Shown one piece after another: positions 6,152-45,781 of a stretch of DNA of 64,000 nt. The stretch's first letter is position 1. Every line of letters starts with the position of its first letter. Under the pieces are notes generated by a model. The model had not been told where the DNA came from. It made no database searches and was given only the letters and a program-made list of their open reading frames with translations. Origin of the DNA: Promethearchaeota archaeon (lineage in GTDB: Archaea; Asgardarchaeota; Heimdallarchaeia; Hodarchaeales; Hodarchaeaceae); the NCBI GenBank assembly GCA_048938105.1, contig JBHLMN010000011.1, forward strand, positions 128,001-192,000, in the 5' to 3' direction. Both the position numbers and the translations under genes were made by a program.

Positions 6152-9100
6152 TTGGAGCTATTAATCTTGTCCCATCAGCTCTTAAGGGAATCAAGAACCA
6201 GTCATACTACTCCAATTCCGCGTTATATAGGCATTAATATTGGCTCATTAACGATAAAAAGGGTTATTATTGAGCCATATAATATTTCAGTAGATATAAC
6301 ATCTCACAATGGTCTTCCACTTGAAATCTTAAATGACTATTCTAAAGAGATTGGATTTTTTGGCATATCTGGTAAGATCGGTCATATTTCAGAACCAGCA
6401 GCTATTGAAAGAGCACTAAAAGAATTACAAATATCGTGTGACGCTATAATTTCTCTAGGGGCGGAAGTATTCGTGTTATATCTGGTAAATAAAAAAAATG
6501 AGATTTTCAACGTTATCTCACACAATAAATGCGCGGCGGGAAGTGGAGAGTTTTTGTCTCAACAACTTACAAGAATGAAACTATCACTTGAAGATGGGAT
6601 TCCATTAGGATATAAAGGAAAAACTATTCCATTAGCTTCACGCTGTTCTGTACACTGTAAGACAGATATTACTCACAAACTAAATCGTAACGAGGCTACA
6701 AAAGCCGATATTATCTATTCTGTCATTAATAGTATGGTGTGTAAAGTCATTGCTTTAATAGAAAAAAGCCAGTACCAAGTATCTCGAATCCTATTAATAG
6801 GGGGTGGAGTAAAAAATAAGCTATTGATAAAACTTATTCAACAGCAGCTCTTAAGAAAAACATTGATTACTGTACCCGAGAGCATATATTTTGAAGCTTA
6901 TGGAACTGCACTGCTAGTTCAAGACGATCCTAAATTTAAGTCTCCTCATGTGTCAGTAACGCGAACATTTGAAAATTTACCTCCTCTATCTCAATTTCAA
7001 GATTTAATAACTATTAAACAGGCATCAAAAAATCCAAATGCTCCTGGCCCATATATCCTCGGCATTGATGGTGGCTCAACAACAACTAAAGCAGTTATTC
7101 TATCTAAAACTACCAATGAAATCGTTGCTTCTCATTATATGAGAACTGATGGTGATCCTATTCAAGCTACCAGGGATTGTCTAGCAACGATAATCCAAAA
7201 TCATTCTGACTTTCCCATTATAGCTATTGGTACAACAGGCTCCGCTCGCAAGATCATTGGCGCTTTTACTAGAAGTACTTGTGTTATCAATGAAATTTCA
7301 GCGCATGCGCGAGGTGCAGTAGAATTTAATCCCACAGTGGACACGATTTTTGAAATCGGCGGCCAAGATTCAAAGTATATATTTCTTAATCAATCTGTAC
7401 CAATATCTTATGCTATGAATGAAGCATGTTCAGCTGGTACTGGAAGCTTTATTGAAGAAGCAGCTAAAGGGGATCTTAATCTAGATGTTCATAAGATAGC
7501 CAATGTTGCATTTTCTGCACAAGCTCCGGTAAAGTTTAAAGATAATTGTGCGGCGTTTATAAATACTGATATTAGAACAGCTTTACAAGAGGGATATAGC
7601 CAGGCAGATATTGTTGCTGGAGTTATTTACTCCATTGTTAACAATTACTTAATTAAAGTAAAGGGAAAACGTCGTGTTGGCAAGATTATTTTCTTCCAAG
7701 GGGGGGTTGCATTAAACTTAGCCATTTCAAATGCATTTGCTTATGCAACACAACGCCCGATTATTGTACCACCATTCCCAGAACTAATGGGAGCGTATGG
7801 TATCGCATTATTAACAAAAGAGCGACTAGAAAAAGGAAATATTACTAAAGTAAATGTCAACCTCTCTACTTTTATACAAAGATCTTTTCACAAAGTAGGA
7901 AATTTTACTTGTCAATCGTGTACAAACCAATGTATTATTGATAGATTAGAAGTTGATGGAAAAAAATATCCTTTTGGTGGGCGATGTAGCCGATGGGAGC
8001 GAGAATGGCAACAAAAAAGAGCTAGTAGAGAGATTACAGACTATACTCAGCAAAGAAATGACTTCTTATTGAAACAAGAAACAACCACTCTTCCGTCAAA
8101 TGTTCGAGGAACAGTAGGAATTCCAAGAGCGTTAATGAACCATTCACTTTTTCCATTGTTTAACACTTTCTTTAGAGAATTAGGATTTGAAGTAGTACTT
8201 TCTGACACATCACTAAAGGGATCAGAAATAACTGATTCTGCTTTTTGTTACCCCATTGAGATAGCTCACGGAGCCGTCTTTGATCTCATCAATAATAAAA
8301 ATATAGATTTGATTTTTATTCCACATATACAAAAAATGCCTACTTACAAAAAAAACCATGATCATACGCATCTTTGTTATTTTAACCAAGGATTTCCCTA
8401 TATTGCTCAACAAAAATTTGAAGACTCAGCTGTTGAGTTTCTTACTCCAACCTTAAATTTTAGTGGAGGATATACCTCTACTACAGGTTTAATTTCCCTA
8501 TATAATGAGTTAAATGTCACTAAATCAGAAGCTCAAAGTGCATATACTAAAGCTGTTATTCGACAACAAAAAATTGAAAGTGAATTACAAAAAATGGGTA
8601 TGCAAGCTCTACAGAAGGTTATTAACGATTCAAATGACTTGGGAGTCATCCTTGTAGGACGTAGTTACAATGCATTCCCTCCTGAAACATCAATGAATAT
8701 TTCAAAAAAACTGACCAGCCAAGGAATTACAGTTATCCCATTCGATTGTTTAGAACGATATGATAATGAGGAAAATTTCTGGTATTTCAGTAATTTAATC
8801 ATGAATGCTGCTACACTCTCAATCAGATTTCCAAATATTTTTTTACTTTACATTTCGAATTTCAGTTGTGGAATAGATGCTTTCACTCAATTCTTTTTAC
8901 ATAAGGAATTAGGTGAAAAACCATATCTACTACTAGAAATTGATTCTCACACAGCAGACGCAGGTATATTCACACGAGTTGAAGCTTTTATTGAAATTAT
9001 CCGTAATTATTCAAAACAACACGTATCAGTAAAGAAAACACAATTTAATCCCAGCAAAGTTGTTTTCAGAAGCAGCAAAGCATATGTATCAACAAATAAT

Positions 9101-28659: not shown

Positions 28660-29367
28660 ATGACGAAATCTGACACTAGTTCCCATCAAAACAAGTACCA
28701 AGATATTATTAATTACAAACCTGAAGTTCTAAAAATCATTAGTGATGAAGAAACCCTCAAACTCCTTTCAGACATCAATTACGAGAATGTGATGAGAATT
28801 TTAAGGAAAAAACCTATGACTGTTCAAGAGATCACAAAGGCTTTCAATATTATAGCTAAAACTTGTAGTAAGACTGAAAAGAAATCTGATAAATCAATTT
28901 ACCGTTATTTAAAGGTTCTTGAAGAGAAGAGGATGGTTGTTACCGCTGGTCAACGTGTGGTTATGGGTAAGACTGCTACTGAGAAGTTATACATGCCGAC
29001 TGCTCGTATCTTTCAACGAAAAGACATTGATTGGCAATCAGAAAGAGGTAAACAATGGGCAAACCGATTTGCTATTCTCATGCGTTATATGATCGAAGAT
29101 GATGGTCATGAACTATCTCTAAGTTGTATTCAGGAATTCTTTGAGAAGCTGACTAAAGGTAAAATAGAGGCTCTTGAAAGATTAGTTGAATCTGCTTCTG
29201 ACGAAACATTACAGCATATCAATGAAGGTGAATGGGAGGAGTTAGTTGAATTTGTTGATTGGGTATACATCTTTGGGTCATTGATGAGTCAACCTGAATT
29301 ATTGAATCAGTTAAATGACTGTTTTACAAAATCCACACAAGGAGATTCACACAACAGAACCATATGA
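28660..29367 (+). CDS. ArsR-like winged-helix domain protein (paralog 1)
   Basis: ILRKKPMTVQEI...KSDKSIYRYLKVLEEKRMV...G.RV..GKTATEKLY..TAR. Confidence 0.8.
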   Translation: MTKSDTSSHQNKYQDIINYKPEVLKIISDEETLKLLSDINYENVMRILRKKPMTVQEITKAFNIIAKTCSKTEKKSDKSIYRYLKVLEEKRMVVTAGQRVVMGKTATEKLYMPTARIFQRKDIDWQSERGKQWANRFAILMRYMIEDDGHELSLSCIQEFFEKLTKGKIEALERLVESASDETLQHINEGEWEELVEFVDWVYIFGSLMSQPELLNQLNDCFTKSTQGDSHNRTI

Positions 29368-29386
29368 AATACTAAAGTTGATTCTC

Positions 29387-30076
29387 ATGACGAAATCTGG
29401 CCAACCGCAACAAAACAAGAAGTATCAAGATATTATCGATTATAAACCAGCAATTCTAAAGGTTCTAAGCGATGAAAAGACATTGAAGATGCTTGAGAAT
29501 CCCAATTACGAATTAATTATCCCAATTCTAAGGAAAGGAGCAATGACCGTTCAGGAAATTACAAATGCTTTCAACAATATAGCAGAAAAGTCTGATACTC
29601 TTGAAGTGAAGTCAGATAAATCAATTTATCGCTATTTAAAAGCTCTTGAGAAGCTAGGAATCGTAGCTACAGCCGGTCAGCGTGTAATCTTGGGAAAAAC
29701 CGCTAGTGAAAAATTATACATGCGTACAGCCCGTGTATTCGAATTGAGGTTCAAATATATTGATTGGATGGGAGAAGAAGGAAATGAATGGGCTGAACGG
29801 TTCGGTACATTAGTTGGCCTTATGCTAAACATCAAACAGACCCCCTCTCTAAAATGTATCCAGGAATTTTTTGCTAAGTGGAATAGCGCAAGATCCACTG
29901 CAACTGAGAAACTGGCTTCAATCGTTCCCGATGATGAAATGGAAATTATAACAACATGTGACTTACGGGAATTGTCAGAAATTTTTGCCCGAGTATACAT
30001 CTTCAGTACACTAATGAATGATCCAAAGTTGTTGCAAGAACTTCGTATGTGTTTCAAAAATAGAAAGAAAGACTAA
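29387..30076 (+). CDS. ArsR-like winged-helix domain protein (paralog 2)
   Basis: Same motifs as 28660; ATG at 29387 chosen because attctcATGacgaaatctg is identical at both gene starts. Confidence 0.8.
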   Translation: MTKSGQPQQNKKYQDIIDYKPAILKVLSDEKTLKMLENPNYELIIPILRKGAMTVQEITNAFNNIAEKSDTLEVKSDKSIYRYLKALEKLGIVATAGQRVILGKTASEKLYMRTARVFELRFKYIDWMGEEGNEWAERFGTLVGLMLNIKQTPSLKCIQEFFAKWNSARSTATEKLASIVPDDEMEIITTCDLRELSEIFARVYIFSTLMNDPKLLQELRMCFKNRKKD

Positions 30077-30119: not shown

Positions 30120-30776
30120 ATGAAGGGTAAATCAGATACTAATGCTTGGAAAGAGTATTCTTTCCGCTTTTATATTCAACGACTTCAATATTTTGAAATT
30201 AAAATTTTAGGATTCAAACTATTAGTATTCCTATTAATACTTGGTAATCTATGGGGAGCTTTCATTGGTTTTATATACTATTTTGAAGTAATTGGGCTTA
30301 CTCAATATTCCCCCATCCTATGGATATTAATACCTGACTGTCCTATGGCCGCATTATTGTTATTGGGAGTATATATTCAATTTGATAATCAACGTTTTTC
30401 TAATTTTAATTTTTTTGTATTCATCCAAGGTATTCGTGCAGCCATCATTACTTATCTGATTATATTAAACTTTGGGTCACTAGATATTGAAGTTGTGGTA
30501 ATCGGCCACTTTTTGTTACTTATTCAAGCAGTGGCTATATTACCTTTATTGTTAAATCTAAAATATACTAAAGGAACACTTGTTACTATTGGAATTACAT
30601 TATTCAACGATATATCTGATTTTTTCGGAATAATAGGAATAACTGAGCCTACTTTAGCCCAGCTACCTACTATTCAACCATTATTCTCTCCCTTTGTAAC
30701 CATAGTTTTCGGGTTAGACATCTTTCTCATTCTTGTTGGTTTGGTTTTTGCTAGATTCATGAGTCAAGAGAATTAG
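30120..30776 (+). CDS. DUF1405 family membrane protein (YpjA/LhaT-like)
   Basis: NL.G..IG..YY...W.LIPDCPMA signature, GH, FNDISDFFG...P; polytopic. Confidence 0.75.
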   Translation: MKGKSDTNAWKEYSFRFYIQRLQYFEIKILGFKLLVFLLILGNLWGAFIGFIYYFEVIGLTQYSPILWILIPDCPMAALLLLGVYIQFDNQRFSNFNFFVFIQGIRAAIITYLIILNFGSLDIEVVVIGHFLLLIQAVAILPLLLNLKYTKGTLVTIGITLFNDISDFFGIIGITEPTLAQLPTIQPLFSPFVTIVFGLDIFLILVGLVFARFMSQEN

Positions 30777-30860
30777 AAAATCTCTAATTGCTATGATACT
30801 ACAATTTTAAGGCGATAATTATTTAGATTAACAGCTTTTGTATTTTTTCTTGAATATTTT

Positions 30861-31841
30861 ATGGCAGCGCAACAAAATATTGTCCAAGAGCTTTTAGATA
30901 AGCTTTTTCAGGCAATTGTCACCTTTCTCAGGGAAATAGCGAATCCTATCAGCTTTATTGACAAGTATTTCATCTCAGAGGAAGGTTATAATATCTACAA
31001 CACTATTGTGTATACTACGATTGGAATACTTGCTATATTCCTAATTGGAAAAATAATTTTCCGTATAAATCAAAAGGGTTTTGAACGATGGGGAGAAGAT
31101 CATTTTATACCAGTTCAAATGGATTTAGAGTTTTTTGTTTCTATTTTACCGTATATCTTCATCGGTTCCACATTACGCGCTCTGCAAGATATTGCAGATC
31201 AAGATAAGATTATCTCTCCCTATGAGATTTTTGGGCTCCGTCTTTTTGTTACACCATACGTTTACGTCATCACTATCCTATTAACCTTAACTATTGGACT
31301 TATATCAATTTTTATCTCGCAAGAATATCTGCAAAATCTACAGCGATTTTCAAATTGGAGGTTCACCTTTCTATCGATTGGAATAATAATTGAAATCGTT
31401 TTATTCTTCCCAATTATTTTCCTGTTAACAGATCCTTATTACATCGGTGGTGGCTTAATTATTTTAGTCTTATCAGGCATTTTCGGGGTATTATTCTATC
31501 TTGTATCAACTCAGCTTTCGCAACGTTATATTCCTGAAGCTGTAGTAAGACGAGAGGAGATATTAACGATGATAACACAAATGTTTGATGCTTTTAATAC
31601 CGTCATTGCTATAGAATTCTTTAATTATCAGGAGAAACATTATTTACCTTCTATTCTATTTAATACCCCGTTTGGAGCTTGGCCTTTCTTATTGTTAAAA
31701 TTTACTTTGATTTTATTATTTATTTATGCAGTTAGAGGGCTTGACAAAGAAGATACGCAAAACTGGTTACTATGGGTTGTGTTCTTACTTGGTCTAGCTA
31801 CTGGAACACGGGACTTTCTTCGGCTAGTAACCAATACCTGA
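30861..31841 (+). CDS. DUF63 family membrane protein (archaeal lipoprotein lipidation Ali-like)
   Basis: GYNIYNTIVY, PYIFIGSTLRALQD, FVTP.VY, QMFDAFNT, YQEKHYLP, LGLATGTRDFLR. Confidence 0.85.
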   Translation: MAAQQNIVQELLDKLFQAIVTFLREIANPISFIDKYFISEEGYNIYNTIVYTTIGILAIFLIGKIIFRINQKGFERWGEDHFIPVQMDLEFFVSILPYIFIGSTLRALQDIADQDKIISPYEIFGLRLFVTPYVYVITILLTLTIGLISIFISQEYLQNLQRFSNWRFTFLSIGIIIEIVLFFPIIFLLTDPYYIGGGLIILVLSGIFGVLFYLVSTQLSQRYIPEAVVRREEILTMITQMFDAFNTVIAIEFFNYQEKHYLPSILFNTPFGAWPFLLLKFTLILLFIYAVRGLDKEDTQNWLLWVVFLLGLATGTRDFLRLVTNT

Positions 31842-31869: not shown

Positions 31870-32421
31870 TCAGTCTGTTGTTTCGAGTTGTGATTCTATC
31901 TCCTTAGGTAATCCTCTAAAATAAGTGAGTAATAGATATACTTGTCCTCGATGATATTGTTCATGATCATAAAACGCCTCTAGCAATTCATAGACTTTCA
32001 TTTCTTCGCCCCAAGGAGCTTGCACCTTTTTTTCATAAGCTGCATTTGGAGAATCGAGTAATATTTTTGTTTCTTTTTCAGTAGTTGAAGCAAGCTCTTT
32101 TAATCGTTCCAAACCAACATGATTAGCTTCTTCTAACCTAAAAAATCTATTTCCTACCCATTGTGCTGGGACAGCCTCAGCGATTTGAGGGCTTTGGAGA
32201 TTAAAACTTTGATGTATATATCGTATCTCCGACGCGAGCATATGACGGATAATTTCATCGATAGCCCACTGATAGGGTTTTGGTCTTGTGATTATCCATT
32301 TTTCTTCTACCTCTGATTTACTTAGTTCATTCCACATTATTGAATGCTGGTTCTCAATGCGTTCATATCTTTTCTTCCAAATAATTTTGTATTCATTAAT
32401 TGGTTTAATCTTCATCACCAA
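31870..32421 (-). CDS. DinB family protein
   Basis: W.IDEIIRHMLASE...HEQYHRGQV..LL. Confidence 0.85.
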   Translation of the reverse strand: MVMKIKPINEYKIIWKKRYERIENQHSIMWNELSKSEVEEKWIITRPKPYQWAIDEIIRHMLASEIRYIHQSFNLQSPQIAEAVPAQWVGNRFFRLEEANHVGLERLKELASTTEKETKILLDSPNAAYEKKVQAPWGEEMKVYELLEAFYDHEQYHRGQVYLLLTYFRGLPKEIESQLETTD

Positions 32422-43801: not shown

Positions 43802-45781
43802 CTAATTGGGAATGATAAGTATCTCTGCTATCGCATAGATCATCCTACTTGACTTAAATCCTAATCCGATCAAACGGAGTGGGGTATGCTTCTCATCTAA
43901 TAAAACACCGTTTCGCCTATAAGCAAGGATGATAGATTTATTATATGCAATCATTTGGCTGTCAAAATTTTTTGAATAGCCATCTTGAGCTTTAACCTGA
44001 ACTATATATCCTGTTGAAGCTAAATCGTCATTAAAATCATAATTAAACCCAGAATAGTGCGTTCCGCTGTCACCTCCGTCAAAAATGGCAACTATGACAT
44101 ATAATGGGATCCCAACATAGGTTACATCCTTATCATCTTCAATAATTGTCAGAGAAGATTTGTGATGTTTACAACTGACTATAGTCAAATATTCTTCAGC
44201 AGTTAATACAGCTGTATAACTTGAATTAATTTGGTTTGTTAAACTAATTGTCCAATGGAGAGTTGTTGTCGGGATATCGGTGATGATAATTGATTCTATT
44301 TTACTGATCCATTGATCCATTGAAAGATCTGGTGATACCAACCTTACAGGAAACTCATCCTCGGGTAATGGGAGATTGTTTTTAACATGCGCTAAAATTA
44401 AGGAATTATTTCGAGTTGTAATTGATGATGGAAGAGTTAAATTCGTTCCATCTGATGAAAAAATAGTAACATTGTATCCTTGAGCTGCCAGAGAGTCATT
44501 GAATGTATAATGTTCACTACCATCATCTCCATCAACCATAGAGAGAGCGATCCACAAAGGCATACCTTCATAGGTAATTATTCGGCCAGCCTCAGAGTAA
44601 GTATGACTAACATTGTGAACATGATCTCCACAATAAACCACAGAATTGAAATCATCAAGACCAATGGATGTCTGAGAGACACCAGATAAAGTTATTGACC
44701 AGTCCGTAATACCTGATCCTATTATTATTGTTTTAACATATTTTACCCAAAAATGACCCTCAGAAATAGGCCCTCCGGGACCAAGATAACCCATTCTAAA
44801 AGGTCCACCATAATCGCTTTGAAGCGGTTCCCCATTTTCTTCATAAATTAATGTTAATGTGAGGTTTTCAAGTCCCCCATGGCCAATTTCAACTCCATTT
44901 TCGTCGAAAAGGGGAACATTTCCAAAGATTTGCGATTTAGTAAAAGTAAAATTATAAAAATCAATAGGTACAACCTTCATGGAAAAATTAGATGAAAAAT
45001 CAAGTAAGAGATCTAAAGCAGCAGTCATGTTTACTCCTTTGTAATTGTATGGTCCAACAATAACCCCTGTTGTCTTCAAAAATGCCCCCGAAGCCTCGAT
45101 AGAAGGAAGAAGTTGTAATTGAGAATGAGACAATGTAAATTTTTCATTAGGAGTTTCAAATGTGACTTTTTCATTTTCTCTGATAAATTCCAGTTTAGTA
45201 ACCCATTTTGCCCAACGAACACTGGCAGCTGCATCCTTGTATTCTAATGATGCTGTTTTCCGTTGATCTTCCGTAGAATATTCCTCATCTGAGGGAAGAA
45301 AAACTATTCGTAACCCATCTTCCCATTTAGGGACTTTTGTATCGTTGAATTCATATGCTAAAATCATCTTTCCTTGAATTCCTTCCCATTCTGACGAGGG
45401 GTAAATGTTTTCATAAGTGAAGATTTGTGTATAATCATCTTCAGAAGTGACAGTCAATATATCACCCTGTTGAATTCCACCGACTTCTTCGGCTAAATCA
45501 GAGATTGGAACACCTCTATAAACCCCATTATGACGCCAATTCCCAAATGAATTCTGACATTTACTTGTTCCACTAATAGATGTTAACTCTTTTATATCTG
45601 TGAGAGTGAATTCTTTAGATTCCCCTGAGACTCCCAGTACTGTCAATCCAATTTCCTGGGTCATTTCTGGTTCAGTACAACCAGAAAGCAATCCAATCAA
45701 TAGAAGCAAAAAACTGATTATTATAATAGACTTAAACCTCAAACTAGGTTCACCTATCATTTTCCTACTAAAAATTAACAC
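43802..45781 (-). CDS. Lipoprotein with four tandem molybdopterin-oxidoreductase (sulfite oxidase)-like domains
   Basis: Lipobox LLSGC (Cys35; alternative start ATG 45760). Four ~150-aa units each with Y.G[VMI].[LIM], xxD[GDF][YT], [IL][LT]A/IY..N, [PG][LFV]R[LIM], W.K.V-type end. Confidence 0.8.
   Translation of the reverse strand: MLIFSRKMIGEPSLRFKSIIIISFLLLLIGLLSGCTEPEMTQEIGLTVLGVSGESKEFTLTDIKELTSISGTSKCQNSFGNWRHNGVYRGVPISDLAEEVGGIQQGDILTVTSEDDYTQIFTYENIYPSSEWEGIQGKMILAYEFNDTKVPKWEDGLRIVFLPSDEEYSTEDQRKTASLEYKDAAASVRWAKWVTKLEFIRENEKVTFETPNEKFTLSHSQLQLLPSIEASGAFLKTTGVIVGPYNYKGVNMTAALDLLLDFSSNFSMKVVPIDFYNFTFTKSQIFGNVPLFDENGVEIGHGGLENLTLTLIYEENGEPLQSDYGGPFRMGYLGPGGPISEGHFWVKYVKTIIIGSGITDWSITLSGVSQTSIGLDDFNSVVYCGDHVHNVSHTYSEAGRIITYEGMPLWIALSMVDGDDGSEHYTFNDSLAAQGYNVTIFSSDGTNLTLPSSITTRNNSLILAHVKNNLPLPEDEFPVRLVSPDLSMDQWISKIESIIITDIPTTTLHWTISLTNQINSSYTAVLTAEEYLTIVSCKHHKSSLTIIEDDKDVTYVGIPLYVIVAIFDGGDSGTHYSGFNYDFNDDLASTGYIVQVKAQDGYSKNFDSQMIAYNKSIILAYRRNGVLLDEKHTPLRLIGLGFKSSRMIYAIAEILIIPN

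Follow-up and report, generated by a model that had tools for sequence, protein, structure and literature searches.

Does a pair of adjoining archaeal genes, one for a candidate lipid transferase and the other for a relative of a bacterial lipoprotein N-acetyltransferase, encode consecutive steps of lipoprotein maturation? The question is raised by a 64,000-nucleotide stretch of the genome of a Promethearchaeota archaeon of the order Hodarchaeales (GenBank assembly GCA_048938105.1, contig JBHLMN010000011.1, positions 128,001 to 192,000), referred to here as the window, in which a gene for a membrane protein of the DUF1405 family is followed by a gene for an AliA-type DUF63 protein. The enzymes AliA and AliB are the first of archaeal lipoprotein biogenesis and were found only recently. 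Haloferax requires both AliA (arCOG02177) and AliB (arCOG02178) to lipidate its lipoproteins; AliA is the main thioether-archaeol transferase, and AliB may be connected with signal-peptide cleavage (PMC12462473; bioRxiv 10.64898/2026.03.08.710431). The DUF1405 protein LhaT (YpjA), which has six transmembrane segments (TM), acts with PcrB and YvoF to N-acetylate lipoproteins of Bacillus subtilis via an acetylated heptaprenylglycerol carrier, and its action on a lipoprotein substrate has been reproduced in vitro, with the acetyl group supplied by the acetylated carrier (PMC12345273). Papers citing work from 1994 describe the archaeal protein halocyanin as both N-acetylated and archaeol-modified. 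The original prediction for this locus, made from the DNA letters alone, had cited all three of these points, and the literature bears them out, for halocyanin through the citing papers.

From the adjacency of the two genes, the original prediction proposed DUF1405 as the missing archaeal lipoprotein N-acetyltransferase. The idea itself is not new, because Komazin et al. 2025 had raised the possibility of an archaeal LhaT pathway (PMC12345273, Discussion). What is new, as far as the searchable literature shows, is the physical link between AliA and DUF1405 genes; the papers on AliA make no mention of DUF1405, LhaT or acetyltransferase candidates (PMC12462473; bioRxiv 10.64898/2026.03.08.710431). 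Our answer to the question is that the pair plausibly serves consecutive steps in the maturation of lipobox lipoproteins, a reading with moderate genomic support that we regard as evenly poised.

The two proteins and their families

Profile hidden Markov models (HMMs) uphold both family calls of the original prediction. The DUF1405 profile (PF07187) matches the first protein at 45.3 bits over profile positions 1-138 of 160, and the DUF63 profile (PF01889, which carries the current Pfam name AliA_AliB) matches the second at 122.2 bits over positions 3-266 of 269, the cut-off being 25 bits in each case. As predicted, the genes are co-directional neighbours, with DUF1405 first and a spacer of 84 nucleotides (nt), and the IPDCP signature is present at residues 71-75 of the DUF1405 protein. 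Each family is single-copy, with one match in the whole genome (5.85 Mb, 65 contigs; labelled G000). NCBIfam models gave no match to either protein, and phmmer with the window DUF1405 protein returned only 12 representative relatives. Haloferax volcanii, used as a control genome, has both Pfam families.

The window DUF63 protein is of the AliA type. Two conserved arginines of AliA are replaced by histidines in AliB (PMC12462473), and R106 and R317 of the window protein sit in these columns: the two haloarchaeal AliA-type sequences aligned with it have Arg at both, and the two AliB-type sequences have His (or Tyr) at the first and His at the second. The haloarchaeal references were classed as one type or the other from their score patterns and places in the tree rather than by name. 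In the same alignment D110, H260 and R321 are also AliA-like. In a phylogeny the protein belongs to a clade of Asgard AliA (support 96/90) that lies amid AliA of DPANN and euryarchaea and is distinct from AliB, which shares a long branch of its own with the haloarchaeal AliA sequences. As the Asgard AliA sequences form their own clade, we rejected the idea that the pair came recently from Euryarchaeota by horizontal transfer. The window protein therefore resembles AliA of Haloferax volcanii (HVO_2859, arCOG02177) in its Pfam family, in the arginines at both AliA-defining columns and in its AliA-side tree position, but it belongs to a separate Asgard clade and its genome has no AliB paralogue. 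None of the reported neighbours of AliA (an IMP-family protein, GldA, SpoIIM and a metal-binding protein) is found at the window locus, where the DUF1405 gene stands instead. A second, partial DUF63 match was seen in the complete Hodarchaeales genome CP070695.1 (G363, C1:353184-353495; 112 bits, a 150-amino-acid open frame covering profile positions 170-269 only), and could represent either a fragment or a shortened paralogue.

The DUF1405 protein keeps residues that are conserved in its family. In an alignment of 52 sequences, the column of C74, which lies in IPDCP, holds Cys in 45 sequences and Ser in the other 7; H130 is conserved in 51, and D73, D167 and Y54 are invariant. We consider C74 and H130 a candidate catalytic pair, and the combination of Cys/Ser with a near-invariant His fits the rule of the ATGY superfamily, namely a variable nucleophile on TM2 and an invariant His on TM4 (bioRxiv 10.1101/2022.07.06.498872). 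The AlphaFold2 (AF2) model of the protein (pLDDT 91.8, pTM 0.89) consists of an N-terminal helix and six long helices, with C74 at the start of helix 74-86 and H130 within helix 123-138; on our reading of the model these two helices would be TM2 and TM4. Taken together, the AF2 helices, the positive-inside rule and the basic N-terminus would put both residues in the outer-leaflet half of the membrane, which is where extracytoplasmic acetyl transfer would need them. Variation at these positions was observed elsewhere in the family: Ser replaces the PDCP cysteine in haloarchaeal and some other DUF1405 proteins (among L074, L075, L081, L013 and L009), and in one Hodarchaeales paralogue (L010, CP070695.1), possibly inactive, Tyr takes the place of the near-invariant His.

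Compared with LhaT of B. subtilis, the window protein has the same Pfam family, a similar length (~200 amino acids), a six-helix membrane core and the conserved Cys/Ser and His, whereas its resemblance to the family model is remote (45 bits). The hosts differ as well, in that diacylglycerol is attached via Lgt in Bacillus and archaeol would be attached via AliA in the archaeon. LhaT draws on a C35 prenylglycerol donor, whereas the donor in the archaeon would probably be C20. With the ATGY members TMEM164, AIG1, GPC1 and YwaF the protein shares the variable nucleophile and the invariant His and would share the six-TM core, but sequence identity is ~10% and those enzymes act on lipids.

This last difference suggests another role, on the lipid side of the pathway. 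A DUF1405 protein working upstream of or alongside AliA might act on the lipid donor, or on a by-product of the AliA reaction, by remodelling or deacylation, or it might add an acetyl group to the head group of a glycerol lipid. The phospholipid transacylase TMEM164, the lipid hydrolase AIG1 and the acyltransferase GPC1 are precedents in other ATGY branches (bioRxiv 10.1101/2022.07.06.498872), Asgard AliA recurs beside a Metallophos phosphoesterase, and euryarchaeal AliA is found beside lipid-metabolism genes (PMC12462473). Substrate-bound TMEM164 (9lw1_A) was also the top solved structure when the model was compared by VIA-align (Z 8.6, rmsd 5.5, 176/218 residues), but unrelated helical bundles scored 8.2-8.4, so that this match is not clearly above the helical-bundle background, and a Foldseek search of the model against the PDB gave nothing significant. 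Archaeal ether lipids, moreover, have few acyl groups to move, and the reconstituted LhaT reaction used a lipoprotein substrate (PMC12345273). We judge a lipid-side role to be improbable.

The invariant D73 and D167 raise a further alternative, in which DUF1405 would be the archaeal lipoprotein signal peptidase, an analogue of bacterial Lsp that uses these two aspartates. A place beside the lipid transferase would suit such an enzyme, and we know of no archaeal Lsp. The characterised DUF1405 member, however, is an acetyltransferase from B. subtilis, an organism already equipped with Lsp (PMC12345273), the candidate for cleavage in Haloferax is AliB (10.64898/2026.03.08.710431), and most AliA-bearing Halobacteriota are without DUF1405. 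A peptidase role for DUF1405 is in our view very hard to credit.

Features of the window at and around the gene pair, with the candidate lipoprotein substrate
Feature	Position	Strand	Assignment and remarks
DUF1405 / YpjA-LhaT family polytopic membrane protein, 218 amino acids	30120..30776	+	PF07187
AliA-type DUF63 protein, 326 amino acids	30861..31841	+	PF01889; candidate lipoprotein archaeol (thioether) transferase
Conserved AT-rich block AAGGCGATAATTATTTAGATTAA	30809..30831	+	In the 84-nt spacer, ~30-52 nt upstream of the AliA start; candidate TATA/BRE-type promoter
Lipobox protein	43802..45781	-	Candidate substrate; LLSGC after K/R n-region and hydrophobic h-region; likely true start Met8 at 45760
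Two tandem helix-turn-helix (HTH) paralogues	28660-30076		ArsR-like (weak Pfam); directly upstream of the pair
DinB-family gene	31870-32421		Convergent; downstream of the pair

Recurrence of the gene pair

The original prediction proposed synteny and co-occurrence of the two families across archaea as a test. In 20 genomes of the window's genus, AliA is present in 14 and DUF1405 in 17; both occur in 14, DUF1405 alone in 3 and neither in 3. DUF1405 is thus found in every AliA-positive genome of the genus (Fisher p ~0.02, phylogeny not corrected for). Across a 150-genome sample of the Asgard phylum, DUF1405 is present in 6 genomes, all in the window's genus, and AliA above the cut-off in 5, of which 4 are in the genus and one is another genome. 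We take the co-occurrence within Asgard as suggestive. The 201 Halobacteriota genomes, by comparison, are uninformative overall because AliA is nearly universal there: it is found in 192 (DUF1405 in 76), including 72 of the 76 genomes with DUF1405 and 120 of the 125 without. Halobacteriota with at least two DUF63 matches, the AliA plus AliB pattern, carry DUF1405 in 28/30 cases compared with 48/171 of the others, cases that are not independent because the grouping amounts to one class.

Synteny was found in two Asgard clades. DUF1405 adjoins AliA, in that order, in 3 of the 14 genus genomes with both genes (G000, G357 and G138), which make up one subclade, and the same order and strand were found on L011, L015 and L082 as well as on L012 and L017 (the latter being G138). 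The AliA-adjacent copies form a terminal clade of the DUF1405 tree (support 97/87). At L012 the flanks are unlike those in the window, with RadA upstream and an acyltransferase downstream; the pair therefore persisted through rearrangement. The second, distant clade has DUF1405 followed by AliA1 in both of its genomes, with a gap of 11 nt in L014 and an overlap of 11 nt in L123, and on account of this spacing the two genes are probably co-transcribed there. Between L014 and L123 the DUF1405 proteins are 53% identical and the AliA2 proteins 63%, and both DUF1405 proteins are 30-35% identical to that of the window. Trees of DUF1405 and AliA place the L014/L123 clade as sister to, or grouped beside, the Hodarchaeales clade.

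A rough estimate of the chance that two given genes are immediate neighbours is ~4e-4 per genome of ~5000 genes, or ~0.04 events over ~90 lineages. Since only ~0.04 events are predicted and the same order and orientation are seen in two separate Asgard clades, the adjacency is more than chance. Bacteria offer a precedent for such clustering, with yvoF in the lgt cluster of B. subtilis (hprK-lgt-yvoD-yvoE-yvoF) and a lhaT-lit operon in Bacillus anthracis (PMC12345273). There, as in the window, genes of lipidation and of N-terminal tailoring lie together. The partners differ: the bacterial loci join Lgt with the donor-loading YvoF, or LhaT with Lit, whereas the window joins AliA, the Lgt analogue, with the LhaT homologue itself.

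Several features of the Asgard loci deserve mention in their own right. Two AliA paralogues, ~32-36% identical to each other, are divergently arranged around DUF1405 at L014:6191-9728 and L123:4967-8050. In L014 a 233-amino-acid polytopic open reading frame without a Pfam match (7241-7942, minus strand) abuts the start of AliA2 and could encode another pathway component, such as a candidate peptidase. An apparently split AliA in L014 was considered as a pseudogene and rejected, the break being a 10-N scaffold gap. The L014 DUF1405 protein found no relatives in a word-indexed protein search. Depositor labels in the records of L012, L014 and L017 conflict and were not relied on, although the metagenome-assembled genomes concerned cluster with Hodarchaeales: 'Hermodarchaeota' is the name given to those with an AliA that shares 78% identity with the window's, and L014 is labelled 'Odinarchaeota' and its relative L123 (AliA2 63% identical, as above) 'Hodarchaeales'. 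A Metallophos phosphoesterase and an Arf/Ras-like small GTPase lie beside AliA in several Asgard lineages (L004:4510-6975, L005:4537-6963, L123:3591-6031, L014:12265-15742), and in B3_Heim-type genomes only 2 nt separate the Metallophos stop from the AliA start. The HTH pair upstream of the window genes is also found ahead of the L011 locus and of the CP070695.1 (L003) locus, the latter without DUF1405. An apparent 53-nt overlap of the HTH genes is likely not real, because the second open reading frame probably begins at an internal Met.

Candidate donor and substrate

An acetylated prenylglycerol donor would need two cytoplasmic enzymes, and a family-level homologue of each is encoded in the genome. 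The first is a PcrB/GGGPS-family match (52 bits); GGGPS is universal in archaea, hence such a match is expected in any archaeon. The second is a Maa/YvoF-family O-acetyltransferase (G000 contig C39:155.8-156.4 kb; L108:1117-1707, minus strand) that matches solved Maa structures with an E-value of 7e-57, a candidate for the donor pathway. Enzymes with the Mac domain are rare in Asgard, being found in 4/150 genomes, and in 5/20 genomes of the genus, the latter including all three genomes in which DUF1405 and AliA adjoin.

A candidate substrate lies in the window itself. The lipobox protein called in the original prediction proved to be real: from Met8 it reads MIGEPSLRFKSIIIISFLLLLIGLLSGC followed by TEPE, with the lipobox stretch ...RFKSIIIISFLLLLIGLLSGC followed by TEPE. 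Its lipobox Cys, as [LF]SGC or LAGC, is kept in 10/10 homologues from 10 genus genomes at 40-80% identity, which argues for a functional lipobox. The N-terminus as a whole is strongly conserved across the genus (GEPSLRFKS...[LF]SGC; window and L111-L119).

From the families, residues and gene order we infer the following enzymatic steps, donor and substrate. Both steps of the pair would take place on the outer face of the membrane. AliA would move an archaeol-type lipid onto the lipobox Cys of exported precursors, such as the lipobox protein of the window, and another enzyme would then remove the signal peptide of the lipidated precursor. In the cytoplasm, the GGGPS/PcrB-family enzyme and the Maa/YvoF-family acetyltransferase would together produce the carrier, an acetylated polyprenylglycerol. 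The DUF1405 protein would load the acetyl group of this carrier onto C74, with H130 as base, and then acetylate the alpha-amino group exposed at the lipidated Cys.

Shared pathway or unrelated neighbours

A number of observations speak against this scheme, the first group of which concerns the linkage of the two genes. In the remaining 11 of the 14 genus genomes with both genes, DUF1405 and AliA are held apart. In the complete genome CP070695.1, AliA keeps the HTH...DUF6745 surroundings seen in the window, but genes for methyltransferase, Kelch and NUDIX proteins stand where DUF1405 would be, and the DUF1405 copies are ~0.8 Mb away. DUF1405 has been cleanly lost from the RadA-AliA locus of L124, a sister of the DZ1M type, and a search of the gap upstream of AliA found no DUF1405 remnant. 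Further afield, our own AliA HMM, which in a control detected AliA of Methanocellales, Thermococci, Nanoarchaeia, Micrarchaeia and haloarchaea at 39-90 bits, found no AliA within ~10 kb of DUF1405 in 24 non-Asgard archaeal loci (mostly DPANN), nor in the bacterial loci scanned in the same way. No additional adjacency was seen in 25 further metagenome loci, and there was none in 52 Halobacteriota genomes (42 with listed coordinates and 10 checked individually), the nearest pairs being 14 kb and then 48-69 kb apart, so that the adjacency is missing in the very group with the highest frequency of both families. The adjacency is phylogenetically narrow, sporadic and easily lost; synteny is not general, and co-occurrence is suggestive within Asgard only.

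Transcription in the window adds to these points. The AT-rich block of the spacer is conserved among the window, L015 and L017, and it persists ahead of AliA in L124 (136 nt at 80% identity) despite the absence of DUF1405, for which reason AliA probably has its own promoter in the genus, the block itself being the candidate. The window genes are neighbours but probably not a strict operon. A scan for bacterial-type promoters and terminators, a type of scan not suited to archaea, was at background.

The remaining points concern the pathway. Twelve genus genomes carry DUF1405 and have no Mac-domain acetyltransferase. In a genome-wide census of lipoboxes by regular expression, Cys at +1 was not clearly enriched (11 observed, 6.0 expected), and only ~4 convincing lipobox proteins were recognised, on contigs C36, C49 and C56 in addition to the window's protein. 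The idea of a large Asgard lipoproteome was dropped for want of this enrichment, and the Asgard lipoprotein pathway of the original prediction is reduced to a handful of lipobox proteins. We know of no N-acetylated Asgard lipoprotein. The small lipoproteome agrees with the few lipoproteins predicted in Asgard in PMC12462473, where arCOG02177 is named only in Euryarchaeota and DPANN. In addition, some bacteria with PcrB/LhaT orthologues make no acetylated lipoproteins (PMC12345273), so the DUF1405 family may have other acceptors.

Such observations would be expected if the two genes were unrelated neighbours. AliA would lipidate, the DUF1405 protein would be an ATGY acyl or acetyl transferase, or a hydrolase, with another extracytoplasmic acceptor (lipid, glycan or protein), and their adjacency would reflect local genome history. 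Besides the missing linkage in the genus, in Halobacteriota and in the non-Asgard loci, and the loss of DUF1405 in L124, which spared AliA and the block ahead of it, this explanation is favoured by B3_Heim-type genomes, in which AliA follows Arf and Metallophos genes and DUF1405 lies elsewhere, monocistronic among unrelated genes. The unequal distribution of the two families in Halobacteriota is also in its favour. Other uses of the acetyl carrier have been raised (PMC12345273), and the presence of up to three DUF1405 paralogues per Hodarchaeales genome hints at several acceptors. On the other side, order and orientation recur in the second clade with closely packed or overlapping genes at 53-63% protein identity, L012 keeps the pair despite changed flanks, both families co-distribute within Asgard, and the sole biochemically characterised DUF1405 enzyme acts on lipoproteins. 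We hold unrelated neighbours to be a doubtful explanation and yet a serious rival, because the linkage is sporadic, easily lost and absent in Euryarchaeota and DPANN, and because the lipoproteome is small.

We nevertheless favour a shared role in lipoprotein maturation, based on the families, the conserved residues, the bacterial clustering precedent and the recurrence in two deeply separated Asgard clades. The more specific proposal, that archaeal DUF1405 proteins N-acetylate lipidated Cys termini downstream of AliA by way of an acetylated prenylglycerol carrier, and so produce the modification reported for halocyanin, is one that we put forward tentatively, with slightly less than even confidence.

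The AliA-DUF1405 pair is, in the searchable literature, the first case in which genomic context connects the lipid transferase of archaea with the sole known family of lipoprotein N-acetyltransferases. It provides a testable clue to the archaeal acetylation enzyme rather than proof of it, and it extends AliA, together with a small conserved lipoproteome, to Hodarchaeales. These archaea are among the closest known archaeal relatives of eukaryotes. If the proposed role is true, Hodarchaeales would run a complete lipobox lipoprotein pathway, with a tailoring enzyme that belongs to the superfamily of eukaryotic TMEM164, AIG1 and GPC1.

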